A stretch of 12,558 nt of DNA from Pseudobacteriovorax sp. (GTDB lineage: Bacteria > Bdellovibrionota_B > Oligoflexia > Oligoflexales > Oligoflexaceae): positions 1 to 12,558 of the forward strand of contig JBNKNM010000166.1 in the NCBI GenBank assembly GCA_050293845.1, given 5' to 3'. The position numbers and the translations under genes were made by a program. Of the stretch, positions 2,901 to 10,162 are shown in pieces (the first letter of the stretch is position 1; every line of letters begins with the position of its first letter). Below the pieces are notes generated by a model. That model did no database searches. It saw nothing but the letters and a program-made list of their open reading frames with translations, and was not told where the DNA came from.

Positions 2901-2954
2901 ACCTTCCTCCATGGTTAGATCGGAAGATAGGGCCCTCCGACATCATCTTTATAA

Positions 2955-3031
2955 AATGATCATCAAACAGTACTTGTCAAGTGAGTGCATCCTATTTCAG
3001 GTAATTAAGCCTTTGTTGAGCTTAAGGTCAA
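2955..3031 (-). promoter_or_regulatory. Putative lon promoter/operator region
   Basis: Minus-strand TTGACA (plus tgtcaa, 2975-2980) sits inside the palindrome ACTTG-T-CAAGT (2972-2982). A second near-perfect palindrome TTGAGCTTAAGGTCAA (3016-3031) contains minus-strand TTGACC. The matching -10 boxes are poor. Confidence 0.3.
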
Positions 3032-3236
3032 GCGGTGAATTTCAAAGTAAACCTCTAGTTGAGAGAAAGAAAAAGGTGCTGATACTACACAAAGCATCAT
3101 AAGATTTATGTGTAGAATTCCTAAAAAACCTCTTCGGACTATTCAAATATATTATACTCGCTCAGTCATGCCACCACCTTGATCATGGGAAACTACTACG
3201 GTGAAGAAGATATCTTTAGTTTCATAATAAAAAAGA

Positions 3237-3271
3237 TTGAAATTTTATACATTGTGTAATAGAAATGCTAC
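3237..3271 (+). promoter_or_regulatory. Putative promoter and operator of the barrel/lipoprotein/nuclease operon
   Basis: TTGAAA (3237-3242)-17 nt-TAGAAA (3260-3265). The spacer contains the near-palindrome TTATACA-T-TGTGTAA (3245-3259). Confidence 0.3.
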
Positions 3272-3367
3272 GCCAAAAACTACTGGCTTAGTCTCCGACT
3301 TTTCTAAGGTATTCCGGTATGGTTCGTTGGCGGAAATGGTAACTTTAACAGAATTAGGCAATTACAA

Positions 3368-4750
3368 ATGTTAAAAAGCAGCTCGGCCCTTTTTATTTCG
3401 ACCATGTTGATCGTAACCCCAATAAGCTATGGTGAAGAGTCCCAAGAATTGGGAAGTGAGGAATCCTCAGAAGTTTTTCTTGAGCGAGTTAGTATTGAGC
3501 AAAGATTTCACTCTTCGAGCAAGGGGTTTGAAGCTGGAGAACGCAATAAACTCGAAGCTGCTTTTCAGTATCAGCCTTCAACAGACAGCTTCTTTCGACT
3601 GCGCTTTGATACCGATCCTAAAAAAAATCCAAAAGAAAATAAAACGTCAGAACTCGAACTCATTATGAACCACCGTGTTCTAGATTTTGAGATACAGGCT
3701 GATTTAAAAACAGACCTCGATGCGGGAGACACTGGTGGTATCAGTTTCGGACCCGATGTGAATTCTGAAGATAGCTTCATCCGCTACAACATCATGGACG
3801 AGCTGTCCTTAACCCTATATCCCTTCAACTTCAAGAAAAGTATGGGTGAATTCTTCTATATGTATAATATCACTCAGATATTTTATATTGATGGCACTCC
3901 CGATGTGATTCCTCAAGTGGAAACAGCTGATGTCAGTCTAAGGAATAAAAGTCTACCAGGCTTTGATGTTAGCTTTAAACCTATAGAAAACTTGGCTATA
4001 ACCGTTGGCGTGGGCGCAGCACGATACCTCTATCCCAGTGATCCCGATTTTACGTTGGAAATTCCGGGCGATCAAAATGGAGTTGGTATTGCTTCCGATA
4101 GCTGGCAGTCCAAAACTGACACCGGCTTGAAGCTAGGTGTTGAACTTGAAACAGACATTGTGAATGTAAGCTTTGAATATTTGACCCACAACAATGCTGA
4201 CGAAACGGGTTCTCTTATGGAATCCGCAGCCAACCTTCAGGTTGTTAAAGGATTAGGGATTTTTGAATTGGGAATGGAACTGGCTTACTCTAAGGCTGGT
4301 GAGAATGCCTACAATGTCACTGATGATTTTAAATGGTTTGCTGAAGATACTTTGTTCAGACCAGTTTACTCCGATGAATATGGAGTCCATCAAAACTGGT
4401 TAGGTGAAGTAGGTTTTGCCTATCATTTTAAACTCAAGTATCTGGCAAACCCAAGTATCAATCCTTACATCGCTTACAGCTTACTAGGTGAAAACTTCAT
4501 TTTCTGGGACGAGGAGTCAGCCCACCGTCTACGTACAGCAGATCGTGCGCTATCGCATGGTGGTTTAAAGATATATGGACTTGGTGTTGATTTTCTTCGT
4601 GGAAAATATTCCATTCGCCCTGAATTTGAATATCTGGCTGCAAAAAACGAAGTCTTTCATAACAAAACTGACTTGCGTAGTGCAGAAAACCTTACCAGTC
4701 GCAACAAAAACCAATCGCGTGTAACTCTTTATGTGACTTATGAACTATAG
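3368..4750 (+). CDS. Secreted protein, probable outer-membrane beta-barrel (porin-like), family not recognised
   Basis: Sec-type signal peptide (MLKSSSALFISTMLIVTPISYG). Many amphipathic alternating strands (KLEAAFQYQ, FFRLRFDTD, ELELIMNHR, LKLGVELET, ELGMELAYS, AYHFKLKYL, SIRPEFEYL). C-terminal beta-signal-like strand RVTLYVTYEL. No alpha-helical TM segment. Confidence 0.75.
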   Translation: MLKSSSALFISTMLIVTPISYGEESQELGSEESSEVFLERVSIEQRFHSSSKGFEAGERNKLEAAFQYQPSTDSFFRLRFDTDPKKNPKENKTSELELIMNHRVLDFEIQADLKTDLDAGDTGGISFGPDVNSEDSFIRYNIMDELSLTLYPFNFKKSMGEFFYMYNITQIFYIDGTPDVIPQVETADVSLRNKSLPGFDVSFKPIENLAITVGVGAARYLYPSDPDFTLEIPGDQNGVGIASDSWQSKTDTGLKLGVELETDIVNVSFEYLTHNNADETGSLMESAANLQVVKGLGIFELGMELAYSKAGENAYNVTDDFKWFAEDTLFRPVYSDEYGVHQNWLGEVGFAYHFKLKYLANPSINPYIAYSLLGENFIFWDEESAHRLRTADRALSHGGLKIYGLGVDFLRGKYSIRPEFEYLAAKNEVFHNKTDLRSAENLTSRNKNQSRVTLYVTYEL

Positions 4751-4786
4751 AGCTGGCAAAACCACTTACGAAAGAAAGGTCTAGTT

Positions 4787-5848
4787 ATGAGATTTCTTAG
4801 TCCCTATATCATTCGTCTCATGGTATTTGCAGGAGCTATGATGTTTAGCTCTTGCAGCCAGACTTCGTCTGACACTACTGATAAAAATCAGCAAGGTACA
4901 CCAGTATACAGTTACATCGTCGAAGCTATTGATATGATCAATGAGATCAATATGAAAATTGATCGCGGCATGTTACTGAAAAATCTACGCGCAGCAGAAA
5001 AGAAAGAGTTTGAAGATTACTTCTATGAACTTAAAGTAGTTCTAGAAAGAATGAAGAGGGATCCTGAAAATGAGGGGGCCATTGATAACTTCGTTGTCTT
5101 AAAAGATCGCTTTACACAGCTATCGCTTCAAGAGGCTGATGTTGGGCAATTGGAGCGTTTGAGAAATCAATTCCAACTGATCTTTGATGAGCTGGTGATT
5201 ATACCCAAAAAGAAAGTCTTTTTTGCCGAAGAGTTTGAGACTGTCGGTGAGCTTGGCCAGTTTACGCAATATATTGTGAGTGGCAATACTTCCTGGACTT
5301 CAGCGGAATACAAGGAAAAAATTTATGCAAAGATAAGCGCTTACAAGAAGACCGAGCCCTCTAATGCTTGGTTATTGTCCCCCCATATCGACCTTACCAA
5401 TATTACCGACCCAGTTTTTCAGTTTGATCAAACGGTGGGCTTTCTTGAGGATTGGAGTGAACTAACAGTTCAAATTTCTACAGACTACGTGAAGGGAAAT
5501 CCTGAAGATGCGACTTGGACGGAACTGGTTATAAAGAACCGACCTGAAATTGGTGATAATTGGCAATGGGTTACCTCTGAGGAGGTATCTTTAAGTGAAT
5601 TTGCTGGTGAAACCATAGTTTTAGGAATGAAATATACGGCTGGAACGAGCAAGCAGTCTACTTGGGAGATTGATTGGGTGAGGCTATCCGGGATGTTTGA
5701 AGGTACTGTCAACGTAACTCCCCTTGAGTCGCATGAGCATACAATTTCAGGAGAGTTGAGCTATCACAATTATTTTGATGGTGAAGCCGTTATAGATACA
5801 AATGGCGCTGGGCATATTCACGAAATACAGGTTGGCGACAACAATTAG
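4787..5848 (+). CDS. Lipoprotein: helical N-domain + DUF5017/choice-of-anchor-J-like beta-sandwich + His-rich tail
   Basis: RBS GAAAGG upstream. Lipobox MFSS-C23 (TGC 4853-4855) followed by an S/T/Q/N linker and a charged helical region. From about 5216 to 5692 there are motifs typical of cleaved-adhesin/DUF5017-like domains: FFAEEFE, NAWLLSPHIDL, LTVQISTDY..G.P..ATWTEL, SEEVSLSEFAG, TWEIDWVRL. The tail has HEH..H..HIH. Confidence 0.75.
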   Translation: MRFLSPYIIRLMVFAGAMMFSSCSQTSSDTTDKNQQGTPVYSYIVEAIDMINEINMKIDRGMLLKNLRAAEKKEFEDYFYELKVVLERMKRDPENEGAIDNFVVLKDRFTQLSLQEADVGQLERLRNQFQLIFDELVIIPKKKVFFAEEFETVGELGQFTQYIVSGNTSWTSAEYKEKIYAKISAYKKTEPSNAWLLSPHIDLTNITDPVFQFDQTVGFLEDWSELTVQISTDYVKGNPEDATWTELVIKNRPEIGDNWQWVTSEEVSLSEFAGETIVLGMKYTAGTSKQSTWEIDWVRLSGMFEGTVNVTPLESHEHTISGELSYHNYFDGEAVIDTNGAGHIHEIQVGDNN

Positions 5849-5861
5849 AAAGGGGCCTAAG

Positions 5862-8423
5862 ATGAAATTATGGCACATATACTGTGTGTTAAGTTTGAGT
5901 GCCTTTAGTGGATGTGTTAAAAATCCTTCAGCCACCTATAAGACAGAGCAGTTTGTAAGCACTGAAGGGCGTTTTCTTCAATCGAGTTCTGCAGGTAATC
6001 TTTTTGCCACAGCAATCAAGGAAGAAAACAATCTCGACATGGCCTTTGTACCCACCGATGCTCTCCTCGATGAGGGTTTTGCATTGGTGACGCCAAATAT
6101 GAGCTCTTCCCATTTGAATACGCGGCTTTATCAACAAGTATACAATCAAAAGCGATCTGCCTATAGAGTAGGTACCATACTAGGTAGGGATCTGGAAAAA
6201 TTTATCCTCTCGCGTACCATGGAAACTCTGCGCCATGACCTTCATGTGGCGGGCTTAACCTACGATATCGTTCTTGCTGGTGGAGTGCCACAAGTTGTCC
6301 ATATCCGCGATGAGTCAGGTGAACCACTTGAACCCGATAGGCTATACAGAATAGCTGTGGAAAACCAAGCTTATCGTACGGTTTTTCCTGGCTACTACTA
6401 CCGCCAGGGTTTTAACTTTAGCTTCCATCTAGAAGACCGTGTGGTTTATGCTAAGGATAGCGTTTTGAGTTACCTTTCACGGGTGAAATCATTAAAGTCT
6501 TTTGAGCGCTTAAGGTCACAGGTGACATTAGTAACCCGTGGAAAAGTACCTGGTATTACAGCCATTGGAACTATTCAAGGGAATACTCATTTTTCCAAGT
6601 ATGTTGGCAAAGTCGTTACCGTCGAGGGCGTTGTAACAGCATTTGGCGCTGATAATGAAGGGAGTCGTTCCGGTATCTATGAGGGCTTTATCCAGTCGGT
6701 GCAACAAGATAATGATTTGCGTACATCAGAAGGCATTTACGTTGATTTTCTAGGGCTTGATGTCTCCGACATATCAGTAGGTAGTTTGATTCGGGCTACA
6801 GGAGTCGTGTATGAGGATGTAGTAGATGAAGGACTGACGCGTACTGGCTTGCGTACCTTATCCGAGCTTACGGTGCTCGCACAAAACCAGACCCTACCCA
6901 GGGCGGTTATGCTAGGGGAAGATATAAAAATTCCTAACCAAGCTATTTCCCGTTTCGCCGGTAATCTAAATAATCGTCGTTATCTTCACCTTGACGAAGG
7001 GCTAGACTTTTGGGAGTCCTTAGAAGGTATGCGTGTTAGGGTGCCTCAACCTCAAGTGGTTGGCTTTGCAGGTGGTAGAAAAGACTTGCTGTCACGGGAC
7101 AGACCTAAGGGGTATATCAATATATTTGTAGCTGCAAAGAATTCCCTAAGTCCGAAACAGCTAACTCCCCAAGGAGGAGTGATTATCGATAATCTCGAAT
7201 TTGATTATAATCCCGAGATTATCCGTGTCATTGACCATCACTTGGCGCCGTCTGTGAGCCCCAAATATGTATATGAAGTGGGGGAAATATTACCTCAAGA
7301 TTTGTGGGGAGTCTTAGGTTACAATTTCAATCTTTTTGGCAGCGGTGAATATACTCTCTATGTTACTAGCGGCGACTTCAATGAGGGACGTAGCAAGAAG
7401 GTGACTCCTCTCTCAGATAAACCCAAAAGTTCCTTGATGCCGACGCCTCATCGGTTGACCGTCGCCTCTTTTAATGTAGAAAATCTATCGGGAAATGCCG
7501 AAGACACTAGTGGTGATCAAAAACGCTTTAATAACATCGGTGAAGCCATTGCTAACAACTTGAATTGTCCTGATATTTTAAATCTTGTGGAAATTCAGGA
7601 TAACGATGGTCCTATTGATAGTGGTAGCGAGCAATTAGGTCCGGATGCCAGCCTTACCTTGCAACGTCTTGTAGATGCCATTACCTGCCCGGAAGATGTT
7701 GTCTATGAGGTTATCAATATTGACCCGTTTGAGAATGCCGAGGGAGGCGAGCCTGGAGGGAATATTCGCGTAGCCATGATCTACAATAGCAACAGAGTAA
7801 GCTTCACCCGTAGAGGGCTTGCCAATGCTGATACGGAGGCTTACTTTGACTCCTCTGGGACTTTAGTAGCGAATCCTTCCCGGATTGACCCGCGCCATCC
7901 TGATTTAAAAGGGGTAAGAAAGCCCTTGGTCGCTGAGTTTCTGTTTAAGGGAGAAAAAATTATTGTGATTGGTAATCACTTTAATTCTAAAGGCTCCGAT
8001 ACCTCGTTATGGGCTGCCAACCAACCACCGCAATTCAAGTCCGAAAGTAAGCGCACCAAAATTGCCGCCTTAGTGAATAATTTTGCGACGCAAATCCTCA
8101 ATAAGGACTCTGAGGCAAACGTGATAATTTTGGGTGACTTCAATGACTTTAACGAGTCAAGACCCCTTAAAACATTAGAAGGTTCTAATCTCGAAAACCT
8201 GGCTAATGTCAAAGATAGTGATGGTCAACCCCTTGTGTTACCAAACGATCAGTACACCTATAACTTTGGTGGAAATTCGCAACCACTTGACTTTATAATT
8301 GTTTCTGAAAATTTAATAACGAAAAAAGATCCAAAGCTTGAAATCATCCATATTAACACGGACTATATGGGGCAGGTATCGGATCATGATCCCATCATAG
8401 CTAGCTTCGAATTTAAACCATAA
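5862..8423 (+). CDS. Extracellular lipoprotein nuclease (ExeM/NucH-like; OB-fold + endonuclease/exonuclease/phosphatase domain) with an N-terminal 5'-nucleotidase C-terminal-like domain
   Basis: True start is likely ATG 5862 (RBS AAAGGGG 5849-5855, just after the upstream stop), giving lipobox AFSG-C18. OB-fold motifs IGTIQG..SKYVGKVVTVEGVVTA, GFIQ...D.D.RTSEGIYV and DFWESLEGMRV. EEP catalytic motifs ASFNVENL, LVEIQD, NHFNSKG, ILGDFND, LDFI and SDHDP (8379-8393). Confidence 0.92.
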   Translation: MKLWHIYCVLSLSAFSGCVKNPSATYKTEQFVSTEGRFLQSSSAGNLFATAIKEENNLDMAFVPTDALLDEGFALVTPNMSSSHLNTRLYQQVYNQKRSAYRVGTILGRDLEKFILSRTMETLRHDLHVAGLTYDIVLAGGVPQVVHIRDESGEPLEPDRLYRIAVENQAYRTVFPGYYYRQGFNFSFHLEDRVVYAKDSVLSYLSRVKSLKSFERLRSQVTLVTRGKVPGITAIGTIQGNTHFSKYVGKVVTVEGVVTAFGADNEGSRSGIYEGFIQSVQQDNDLRTSEGIYVDFLGLDVSDISVGSLIRATGVVYEDVVDEGLTRTGLRTLSELTVLAQNQTLPRAVMLGEDIKIPNQAISRFAGNLNNRRYLHLDEGLDFWESLEGMRVRVPQPQVVGFAGGRKDLLSRDRPKGYINIFVAAKNSLSPKQLTPQGGVIIDNLEFDYNPEIIRVIDHHLAPSVSPKYVYEVGEILPQDLWGVLGYNFNLFGSGEYTLYVTSGDFNEGRSKKVTPLSDKPKSSLMPTPHRLTVASFNVENLSGNAEDTSGDQKRFNNIGEAIANNLNCPDILNLVEIQDNDGPIDSGSEQLGPDASLTLQRLVDAITCPEDVVYEVINIDPFENAEGGEPGGNIRVAMIYNSNRVSFTRRGLANADTEAYFDSSGTLVANPSRIDPRHPDLKGVRKPLVAEFLFKGEKIIVIGNHFNSKGSDTSLWAANQPPQFKSESKRTKIAALVNNFATQILNKDSEANVIILGDFNDFNESRPLKTLEGSNLENLANVKDSDGQPLVLPNDQYTYNFGGNSQPLDFIIVSENLITKKDPKLEIIHINTDYMGQVSDHDPIIASFEFKP

Positions 8424-8456
8424 GAGGAATGCCCCCATAGTGGGCTTTCTTTCTTT
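8424..8456 (+). terminator. Rho-independent terminator closing the nuclease operon
   Basis: GAGGAATGCCC-CCATAGT-GGGCTTTCTTT stem immediately after the TAA stop, with a T-rich tail (TTTCTTTCTTT). Confidence 0.65.
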
Positions 8457-8515
8457 CCAATCCCGCCAGGAAGCGCTAGAATTTTCCCTCATCTTCTAGG
8501 TATGAGGGGTTTTAC

Positions 8516-9343: not shown

Positions 9344-10162
9344 TTGCTTGAGCTAATGCTGGTCTCGTCGGTGTTACCCAAATCTGAGGCTGGCCTGATG
9401 ACTCCACAACGTTCCATTTGTCGTGATGGAGTGCTTCTAAAAGTATTCATTCCCCAGCCTTTGCAGGAAGATCGTCAGAATACAGCAGTGCAGTTTCTGT
9501 TGACTTTTGCACTGCGTTCCCGAGCCAGTGAGTTAGCGTGCCTTTTACATTTTTTATTATGTCCAGAACTAGATCGTAAAGGACTTATTACAACTGTTTC
9601 TGAAGAAATGTTAGCAGAGTTGAAAAGTTGCATAAATCTTTACCTGCCACAAGGTATCTTTCCCCTTTTAGGGTTCAATCCTGCAGGATTGTTTCTTGAT
9701 TTTAGAAGGCCTGCTCATTGCCATTATATAGCGAGTTATGATCCGGAAATCTGTAATAAACCAACCAAGAGAGCATTTTGTGCTGCTCACAACAACGAGA
9801 CCTGGTGGTATAGGGACAGGAATCATCTTTCACGGTTAGCAACTATGATGCAATTCTATAATGATCTTCACAATTTCTATACTTATGGTAAAGAAGACCT
9901 TGATCGTTTGGTGAAGAATTTTTGGGAAAATTTTAAATCGTGGTATCAGGATAGTCAAACGTCACAGCTGCAGTTGGCCATGTCAAATTTAGCTATCAAA
10001 CATGAATCTCATCTCCAGGATCTGGGGTTCAAAGGATTGAAAAACTTATATTATCAGAAGACTCTACTCTGTCATCCCGATCGAGGAGGGGATCAAGAAC
10101 AGTTCATATTGCTAAGGCAGAGTTATTTACATTTGAAGCGCTATCTAGAGTTGGCCATATGA
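9344..10162 (+). CDS. Hypothetical protein with a C3H-type Cys/His motif and a C-terminal J-domain-like (HPD) segment; start uncertain
   Basis: C-terminus LKNLYYQKTLLCHPDRGGDQEQFILLRQSY matches J-domain helix II-HPD-helix III. Internal C-x10-C-x8-C-x2-H. The frame is open from 9263, and the TTG start at 9344 has no evident RBS. Confidence 0.75.
   Translation: MLELMLVSSVLPKSEAGLMTPQRSICRDGVLLKVFIPQPLQEDRQNTAVQFLLTFALRSRASELACLLHFLLCPELDRKGLITTVSEEMLAELKSCINLYLPQGIFPLLGFNPAGLFLDFRRPAHCHYIASYDPEICNKPTKRAFCAAHNNETWWYRDRNHLSRLATMMQFYNDLHNFYTYGKEDLDRLVKNFWENFKSWYQDSQTSQLQLAMSNLAIKHESHLQDLGFKGLKNLYYQKTLLCHPDRGGDQEQFILLRQSYLHLKRYLELAI

Follow-up and report, generated by a model that had tools for sequence, protein, structure and literature searches.

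By what route do the products of DNA breakdown cross the outer membrane of Bdellovibrio-like predators? These predatory bacteria live largely on prey macromolecules, and extracellular DNA represents a large reserve of phosphorus, nitrogen and nucleotides; to our knowledge, no route for the breakdown products across their outer membrane has been described. The question is raised by three adjacent genes of Pseudobacteriovorax sp. (GenBank assembly GCA_050293845.1, contig JBNKNM010000166.1), which encode a predicted outer-membrane beta-barrel, a lipoprotein with a choice-of-anchor-J jelly-roll and a lipoprotein nuclease. The window analyzed here is the whole stretch of 12,558 nucleotides (nt), one contig of a 6.7-Mb draft genome that comprises 741 contigs. 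The same three genes recur in the same order in two classes of bacteria. We consider it about an even chance that they form a dedicated TonB-independent outer-membrane module that harvests extracellular or prey DNA and is conserved in Oligoflexia-like and Bacteriovoracia bacteria. This reading is favoured because of the strict linkage of the three genes, the intact nuclease, the array of binding modules in the middle protein and the porin-like fold of the barrel.

Gene order and its conservation

The module occupies the following positions of the window, as taken from the listing of open reading frames (ORFs) and the sequence:

3368-4750, plus strand: gene 1, an unclassified outer-membrane beta-barrel of 460 amino acids (aa)
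4787-5848, plus strand: gene 2, a lipoprotein of 353 aa with a choice-of-anchor-J jelly-roll
5862-8423, plus strand: gene 3, a lipoprotein nuclease of 853 aa with OB and EEP domains

Gaps of 36 nt (4751-4786) and 13 nt (5849-5861) separate genes 1 and 2 and genes 2 and 3, which bears out the close, co-oriented spacing reported in a first-pass annotation of this DNA. For gene 3 the longest ORF opens at 5802. We place the start at 5862 (MKLWH...) because a purine-rich ribosome-binding site lies upstream and because the alignment of 30 orthologs begins there, with an invariant lipobox cysteine. All three products carry envelope-targeting signals, one Sec-type leader (gene 1) and two lipoboxes (genes 2 and 3), again in agreement with the annotation: the leader is recognizable by eye, and the lipobox cysteines are invariant, Cys23 in 32 of 32 gene 2 orthologs and Cys18 in 30 of 30 gene 3 orthologs. 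The closest named homologous proteins come from Pseudobacteriovorax antillogorgiicola and Oligoflexus. Going by source names and a record title, P. antillogorgiicola, Oligoflexus tunisiensis and Bacteriovorax sp. DB6_IX are among the cultured carriers. PADLOC assigned none of the three proteins to a defence-system family, so a known anti-phage system is not indicated.

The order of barrel, middle lipoprotein and nuclease on one strand is found at 39 of 45 loci in Oligoflexia-like and Bacteriovoracia genomes, and at the remaining six loci the contig stops no more than about 1.2 kb from the barrel gene. In each of the 39 informative loci, the barrel and nuclease genes flank a gene for a lipoprotein of 306-924 aa. 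Twenty of the loci come from genomes of relatives: 15 have the nuclease downstream on the same strand, and the other five are cut by a contig end (in one of these genomes, G011, the nuclease lies on another contig). Records of Bacteriovoracaceae and Halobacteriovoraceae contribute 25 loci, 24 of which show the module order, while the last stops 374 nt past the barrel match. Protein identity across these loci is 32-50%, and between the two classes the order is kept at 33-50% identity. Among 131 genomes of the phylum the barrel is present in 22, always in single copy and in two families only; a nuclease ortholog (E <= 1e-100) is present in 19, all of them within the 22 barrel genomes. In the other three barrel genomes the barrel sits at a contig end. 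Recurrence of the three-gene arrangement is far beyond chance. The proposed linkage of barrel and nuclease across genomes thus held at every locus with enough flank (39 of 39), as well as in the genome-by-genome co-occurrence.

The co-occurrence bears on an alternative in which the module remodels the extracellular DNA matrix or serves attack or escape, without import: the nuclease and the binder would clear biofilm DNA or DNA from prey, and the barrel would be an ordinary porin that happens to be co-transcribed. Excerpted reports describe effects on biofilms for ExeM and for the Bdellovibrio nucleases Bd1244 and Bd1934 (PMC6085458; PMC7925074), and a role in immune evasion for SpnA (PMC13601614). 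A general porin that is merely co-transcribed would not, however, remain single-copy, adjacent to the nuclease and co-occurring with it across two classes. It would also be expected in genomes without the nuclease, and no such genome was found to have it; in the three barrel genomes with no nuclease ortholog at E <= 1e-100 the barrel lies at a contig end. We regard remodelling without import as improbable.

Some Bacteriovoracia loci carry additional genes beside the module (L055:14846-15619, L072:6432-7085, L069:2019-3248, L060:15134-16267). The added neighbours include a small secreted EEP protein (258 aa), a PAP2 phosphatase and an upstream phosphate porin of the OprO/P type, as well as a DTW-domain protein at three loci. 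The EEP, PAP2 and OprO/P neighbours hint at a phosphate-scavenging context, although they are not conserved.

The three proteins and the flanking DNA

One feature of gene 1 is readable directly from its translation:

3368-3433, plus strand: Sec-type hydrophobic leader of gene 1 (residues 1-22), read by eye

Gene 1 has no match in Pfam or NCBIfam, and none of the known porin families (Porin_1/4, Porin_O_P, OprD, LamB, BBP2) reaches its Pfam gathering score. A Pfam scan of 59 family members gives a single weak BBP2 match (E 6.4e-4), and the family profile finds nothing among PDB sequences at E <= 1. From an alignment of 59 sequences, AlphaFold2 predicts an all-beta structure from residue 35 to the C-terminus, with a predicted local distance difference test score (pLDDT) of 89.3, a predicted template modelling score of 0.87 and no periplasmic domain. 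The model has the attributes of a porin fold, namely a closed antiparallel barrel without a plug, with short turns on the periplasmic side and long loops outside, and hydrophobic and polar residues alternate along its strands. Gene 1 is therefore confidently folded, as a prediction, into a plugless porin-like outer-membrane beta-barrel. The barrel probably has 18 strands connected by short periplasmic turns, a count read from the DSSP string and not from coordinates.

Foldseek and VIA-align searches with the model return outer-membrane barrels exclusively, with diffusion porins on top. The best match is maltoporin 1mpr (Z 16.6, root-mean-square deviation (rmsd) 4.2, 293 aligned residues), and further matches include ScrY (Z 15.7), chitoporin, OccD/OpdC, OprP (Z 15.0) and MOMP; the porin matches span about residues 25-460. 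Barrels of the CdiB/FhaC and TamA/BamA types also match, at lower Z (14.4 to 10.8), and TonB-dependent receptors score well under the porins (Z 10.3-11.5). No porin family is assigned, since no porin is clearly the best structural match. The features of a TonB-dependent transporter (an N-terminal plug, a TonB box and a barrel of 22 strands) are missing from gene 1: Plug and TonB_dep_Rec find no match, the protein has only 460 aa and its first strand begins at residue 35, so that a plug would not fit in. Fold prediction, Pfam and structural comparison (Foldseek/VIA-align) thus agree with the first-pass annotation on a beta-barrel that has no plug and belongs to no TonB-receptor family. The best-conserved motifs, YPFNF (residues ~151-155) and ESAH.LRT...SHGGL (383-400), are located in long loops by our reading of the DSSP string; we read this concentration of conservation as a resemblance to substrate-specific porins.

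The gene 1 family is small, with 59 clusters in a database of 5.8 billion clusters and 75 representatives at E <= 1e-3 among 1.84 billion. More distant, shorter barrels (~360-420 aa; P0101-P0132) have N-terminal motifs in common with the operon barrel. Among 20 of these scanned, one reaches the BBP2 cut-off and two reach that of OMP_b-brl; by their sequences, the shorter barrels appear to bridge the gene 1 family to BBP2/OmpL-like and generic OMP barrels. Look-alikes of gene 1 in the ESM Atlas are unnamed Spirochaetota clusters and Msp-type sheath proteins, with a recognition value under the tool's mark, so that they serve as leads only.

Gene 2 consists of an anchor, a helical part and a beta-sandwich:

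4853-4855, plus strand: lipobox Cys23 of gene 2 (...FSSC), invariant in 32 of 32 orthologs
4886-5200, plus strand: four-helix bundle (residues 34-138), AlphaFold2
5201-5698, plus strand: choice-of-anchor-J jelly-roll (residues 139-304), AlphaFold2 and NF038128

The AlphaFold2 model (pLDDT 85.9) ends in a disordered C-terminal tail. The choice_anch_J model NF038128 matches residues 146-298 at 50.9 bits, above its cut-off of 30. DUF5017 (PF16409), the family named in the first-pass annotation, finds no match in the window's gene 2 at E <= 0.01, and its gathering score is not reached there. It does match 16 of the 32 gene 2 orthologs at E <= 1e-3; when seven middle proteins were scanned singly, three exceeded the gathering score of 28.8 bits (L015 with 53.0, L055 with 41.0, L064 with 29.0). 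'DUF5017-like' is a fair description of the gene 2 family, then, although by Pfam it does not suit the copy in the window. An InhA-like MAM domain is matched by four of the 32 orthologs.

The best structural match of the jelly-roll is the carbohydrate-binding domain of a chondroitinase (8jiy_A; Z 15.6, rmsd 3.2, 162 aligned residues, 23% identity), followed by the Kgp adhesin domain, MAM domains, the ligand-binding domains of Eph and many carbohydrate-binding modules. As modelled, the domain has a fold seen in modules that bind polymers or ligands. Outside the operon family, its closest relatives by sequence are proteins in which DUF5689 precedes the same jelly-roll. Residues 119-301 of gene 2 show 34% identity to one of these, P0061, whose DUF5689 covers residues 41-256. 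On this sequence evidence, gene 2's jelly-roll and the domain at the C-terminus of DUF5689 proteins are homologous.

The presence of one to four jelly-roll repeats accounts for the length range of the middle lipoprotein (306 to 924 aa), and linkers rich in Pro, Thr and Ala occur in some copies. By contrast, all 32 aligned orthologs retain the N-terminal helical bundle. NCBIfam was run on 31 of the 39 middle proteins, the other eight being close relatives of those included: 27 match choice-of-anchor-J at E <= 1e-3 (22 also exceed the cut-off), whereas four (L017, L068, L069, L070) have no such match. A second choice-of-anchor-J protein is encoded in the genome of the window (392 aa, 56.1 bits; contig C240, L090:449-1627). 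No barrel or nuclease gene lies near it, and its neighbours are enoyl-CoA hydratase, SLT/solute-binding and beta-eliminating lyase genes.

Gene 3 divides into four parts:

5913-5915, plus strand: lipobox Cys18 of gene 3 (...FSGC), invariant in 30 of 30 orthologs
5964-6365, plus strand: 5'-nucleotidase-C-like domain (residues 35-168), weak match to Pfam 5_nucleotid_C
6558-7463, plus strand: OB-fold/SpnA-like region (residues 233-534), match to PDB sequences
7464-8387, plus strand: EEP catalytic domain with an SDHDP motif at its end (residues 535-842), Pfam EEP families

The 5_nucleotid_C match is below threshold in the window copy (20.9 versus 23.6 bits), but the family is matched in 29 of the 30 orthologs, and an EEP domain in all 30. 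Exo_endo_phos and Exo_endo_phos_3 exceed their Pfam cut-offs in gene 3. Residues 233-850 align with PDB entries 9sf8 and 9sf9 (SpnA) at E 1.7e-72; these entries are Streptococcus pyogenes nuclease A, a DNase that has been characterised, according to the data-availability statement of PMC13601614. The model NF033681 (ExeM_NucH_DNase) aligns over positions 1-509 of 546 with residues 254-834 (E 3.2e-41), with a score of 141.8 bits against a curated cut-off of 300. Judged from these profile matches, gene 3 is a clear relative of the ExeM/NucH family, outside its curated cut-off. ExeM proper is not indicated: Pfam finds no lamin-tail domain, a hydrophobic tail is lacking, the protein ends 11 residues past the SDHDP motif, and the exonuc_ExeM-GG model, with a cut-off of 1300 bits, gives a score of 45.5. 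Nine residues of the EEP domain are invariant in 30 of 30 orthologs (N538, E577, D580, H706, D759, N761, D810, D841 and H842), and the metal- and phosphate-binding residues are intact and align with those of SpnA. The annotated OB and EEP nuclease, related to ExeM/NucH and SpnA, is accordingly what NCBIfam and the PDB sequence matches recover. One ortholog, at L018:6134-8760 (contig C544 of genome G021), is divided between two ORFs (572 and 296 aa); a search of this genome for the nuclease gives two matches, one of them with an internal TGA. A frameshift, an error in the sequencing or decay of this copy could explain the split.

Genes 2 and 3 together bear on a role in natural transformation, where the module would bind DNA, nick or trim it and pass it through the barrel as single strands, in analogy to RA0C_RS04915/04920 of Riemerella anatipestifer. 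In that species a choice-of-anchor-J/DUF5689 protein and an adjacent barrel are essential for transformation, and a nuclease gene lies beside them, according to the excerpts of PMC8459023 and PMC12478041; the homology of the gene 2 jelly-roll to the C-terminal domain of the same protein class would fit such a role. The Riemerella barrel is, however, of the energised TonB-dependent receptor type, while gene 1 has neither plug nor TonB box. Moreover, an intact and highly conserved EEP nuclease of processive type suggests destruction of DNA rather than its preservation, and a Pfam scan of the window yields no competence genes. Transformation appears very improbable as the function of the module.

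The DNA on either side of the module contains two features:

2913-3367, no strand assigned: divergent intergenic region of 455 nt between the Lon protease gene lon (minus strand) and gene 1, from the sequence
8431-8458, plus strand: weak terminator-like element, in which a T-rich run comes after a G+C stem of 4 bp, read from the sequence

Both boundaries had been proposed in the first-pass annotation. The upstream one stands, as a divergent region of 455 nt. The terminator is weak: the terminator scanner does not list the 8431-8458 element on the plus strand, and the fold of positions 8415-8515 is no better than that of shuffled sequences (z -0.35). The region at 2913-3367 presumably holds the promoter of the module, and its sigma-70-like matches are weak and no more numerous than in shuffles. 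An Rfam scan of the whole window finds no family at E <= 0.1, so no riboswitch or small RNA accounts for the length of the region upstream of gene 1. A search for 8-mers shared among the 300 nt 5' of the 39 barrel genes recovers A/T-rich words and a few clade-specific motifs. Conserved clade-specific stretches of ~19 nt lie roughly 60-110 nt 5' of the barrel start in L060-L062 and L073 and in L019, L024 and L028 (L025 is similar); these may be lineage-specific promoter or operator sites. On the 3' side the module is followed by unrelated housekeeping genes (FAA hydrolase, SpoU methylase and an HGLS-family gene). An ORF of 272 aa with a TTG start (9344-10162, plus strand) has no Pfam match at E <= 0.01; its translation contains an HPD tripeptide in the C-terminal part, in a J-domain-like context.

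A proposed mechanism and its rivals

If the module harvests DNA, the two outer-membrane lipoproteins would act on the DNA polymer, presumably from the cell surface. The choice-of-anchor-J lipoprotein would hold the polymer by its one to four jelly-roll modules, and the conserved helical bundle at its N-terminus would probably dock it to a partner. The OB and EEP nuclease of gene 3 would cut the polymer, with its 5'-nucleotidase-C-like domain probably gripping nucleotide ends. Nucleotides and short oligonucleotides would then diffuse through the plugless barrel of ~18 strands into the periplasm, where unlinked housekeeping enzymes would finish the salvage. The likely benefit is a supply of phosphorus, nitrogen and nucleotides, and the three genes would be expected to be regulated together. 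A complex prediction for barrel residues 30-460 with gene 2 residues 23-353 scored 0.00 in two runs, and we use it neither for nor against binding. The evidence partly supports the bind, cut and import interpretation of the first-pass annotation: each of its predictions that lent itself to computational checking was borne out, while its functional core, import through the barrel, is what we infer.

A stronger form of the proposal makes the barrel a TonB-independent nucleic-acid-conducting pore. Its conserved external loops would dock the helical bundle and the nuclease, and single-stranded DNA or oligonucleotides set free by the tethered OB and EEP enzyme would be threaded through its 18-strand channel, with hydrolysis or periplasmic binding giving direction. 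We consider this form unlikely.

Several observations weigh against DNA harvesting. The likeness of gene 2's jelly-roll is to carbohydrate-binding, adhesin and MAM modules rather than to known DNA binders, and DUF5689 (PF18942), the proposed DNA binder in the Bacteroides protein DdbD, is absent by Pfam from gene 2 and its 32 orthologs. Because genomes of one family or genus are kin, the co-occurrence counts overstate the number of independent cases. Neither a Pho box nor another common regulatory motif is found upstream of the 39 barrel genes, and the DNA of the window is contained in four sequencing runs from one study, with no RNA run among them. A tblastn search at 12 metagenome loci of the shorter barrels (L078-L089) finds no homologue of gene 2 or 3, though most of these loci are under 3 kb and too short to judge. 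Finally, the mature barrel is net acidic (41 K+R versus 70 D+E), unlike anion-selective phosphate porins, so a simple anion channel is not favoured; and whether the lipoproteins face the surface or the periplasm is not readable from sequence in this phylum.

The last two points lead to different accounts of the barrel. Its net acidity, which disfavours an anion channel, is compatible with a Slam-like partner that exports or anchors the two lipoproteins, flipping them to the surface or holding them there, so that the output is a surface DNase only. Slam acts on neighbouring lipoprotein substrates. Here, too, the barrel is always directly upstream of two lipoproteins with invariant lipobox cysteines, and the helical bundle present in all 32 middle proteins, for which no role in substrate handling is obvious, could serve in docking. 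On the other hand, the barrel lacks any periplasmic domain, with its first strand at residue 35, and diffusion porins match its structure best, CdiB/FhaC and TamA/BamA following at lower Z. An export or anchoring role strikes us as unlikely, to the same degree as the threading pore.

The orientation of the lipoproteins matters to a further alternative, in which they reside on the inner leaflet, the barrel admits DNA fragments produced by other secreted nucleases, as might happen during predation, and gene 3 degrades these inside. Default Lol sorting puts lipoproteins on the inner leaflet, and no signal for surface export is seen in the sequences. Predatory relatives are, moreover, reported to secrete nucleases that first fragment prey DNA (excerpts of PMC7925074 and PMC5760749). 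Yet choice-of-anchor-J/DUF5017 modules and nucleases of the SpnA and ExeM types are known from extracellular or surface proteins, and a variable array of one to four modules is better suited to a large external polymer than to periplasmic oligonucleotides. Processing confined to the periplasm seems to us quite unlikely.

In Bacteroidota, PUL-like (polysaccharide utilization locus-like) ddb loci with TonB-dependent transporters have recently been shown to serve the use of DNA, according to an excerpt of PMC12478041. Should DNA harvesting be the function of the module described here, a second phylum would appear to have met the same need with a passive porin-type barrel, genetically joined to a binder and a nuclease. 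A family of outer-membrane proteins that lacks annotation would thereby gain a function, and the three genes would serve as a marker by which DNA scavenging is recognized in metagenomes. The module would, in addition, be a small system in which the cooperation of nuclease, binding lipoprotein and channel can be studied, and it would perhaps supply a new pore that conducts nucleotides or oligonucleotides. Should the barrel export lipoproteins instead, the phylum would have a first point of entry to the display of lipoproteins at the surface. A barrel that threads nucleic acids would be a polymer importer of a new class, with which predatory and related bacteria feed and possibly acquire genes.

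Comparison with known systems

The closest parallels come from Bacteroidota. That DUF5017/DUF5689 proteins are linked with nucleases and TonB receptors in this phylum is in print, at least in the excerpts of PMC8459023 and PMC12478041; the first-pass annotation had named such a link for DUF5017-like lipoproteins. The six-gene ddbABCDEF locus of Bacteroides thetaiotaomicron is required for depletion of exogenous DNA and is called PUL-like by its authors (PMC12478041, in part). Its products include three nucleases, the TonB-dependent transporter DdbC, the DUF5689 protein DdbD and the signal peptidase II (SPII) protein DdbE, and the DUF5689-class protein pairs with DdbC in the locus (same source). 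As described there, ddb resembles the present module in uniting, within one locus, nucleases that are SPII lipoproteins, a barrel of the outer membrane and accessory DUF lipoproteins, with a logic of binding, cutting and importing. The homology of the gene 2 jelly-roll to the C-terminal domain of the DUF5689 family, the class of DdbD, adds to the likeness. The two systems differ in that DdbC is a TonB-dependent transporter with a plug, whereas gene 1 is predicted as a plugless porin-like barrel of 460 aa, and in that the DUF5689 of DdbD is replaced by a four-helix bundle in gene 2. There are also three nucleases and six genes in ddb, by its published description, compared with one nuclease and three genes here, in another phylum. 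Porins and Bdellovibrio are not mentioned in the text of PMC12478041.

Natural transformation of Riemerella anatipestifer requires both the barrel RA0C_RS04915 and the choice-of-anchor-J/DUF5689/DUF5017 protein encoded next to it, RA0C_RS04920 (PMC8459023), and a nuclease gene adjoins the pair (PMC8459023; PMC12478041), as far as the excerpts of these papers go. As in our module, a barrel gene shares an operon with a choice-of-anchor-J protein, and genetics ties the Riemerella pair to surface DNA. The Riemerella barrel, however, includes a carboxypeptidase-regulatory-like domain typical of TonB-dependent receptors, its partner combines DUF5689 with DUF5017, and the function is transformation, according to the same excerpts. 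Neither this type of barrel nor DUF5689 is found by Pfam in the module of the window.

The nuclease is most similar to the SpnA/ExeM/NucH/Xds group, in which an OB-type region likewise precedes an EEP domain with the same catalytic motifs. SpnA is anchored by LPXTG. Gene 3 has an N-terminal 5'-nucleotidase-C-like domain that SpnA and ExeM lack (29 of 30 orthologs), and it has no lamin-tail domain. In the excerpted description of ExeM, by contrast, an N-terminal lamin-tail domain is combined with a C-terminal GlyGly-CTERM/rhombosortase anchor (PMC6085458). The anchor of gene 3 is an N-terminal lipid, in place of LPXTG or this GlyGly-CTERM tail.

The predicted barrel resembles LamB, ScrY, OprP/OprO, OccD/OprD and chitoporin in structure (Z 15-16.6), in its long conserved loops and in the absence of a plug, and differs from these substrate-specific porins in having no detectable sequence relationship with them (Pfam, PDB sequences). 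Several substrate-specific porins are genetically linked to enzymes of the pathway of their substrate. For DNA, a comparable division of labour reportedly exists in Vibrio cholerae, where the extracellular nucleases Xds and Dns are said to feed a dedicated outer-membrane channel, the nucleoside porin OmpK, for acquisition of phosphate and nucleosides. The components of that pathway are said to be unlinked in the genome, and its channel to be a small nucleoside barrel of the Tsx type; here, a nuclease and a large new barrel belong to one putative operon. The literature searched, which excluded subscription journals and supplementary tables, contains no description of the three-gene operon. The module is apparently an undescribed variant of the DNA-harvesting logic, built around a barrel family that is not described in any database.

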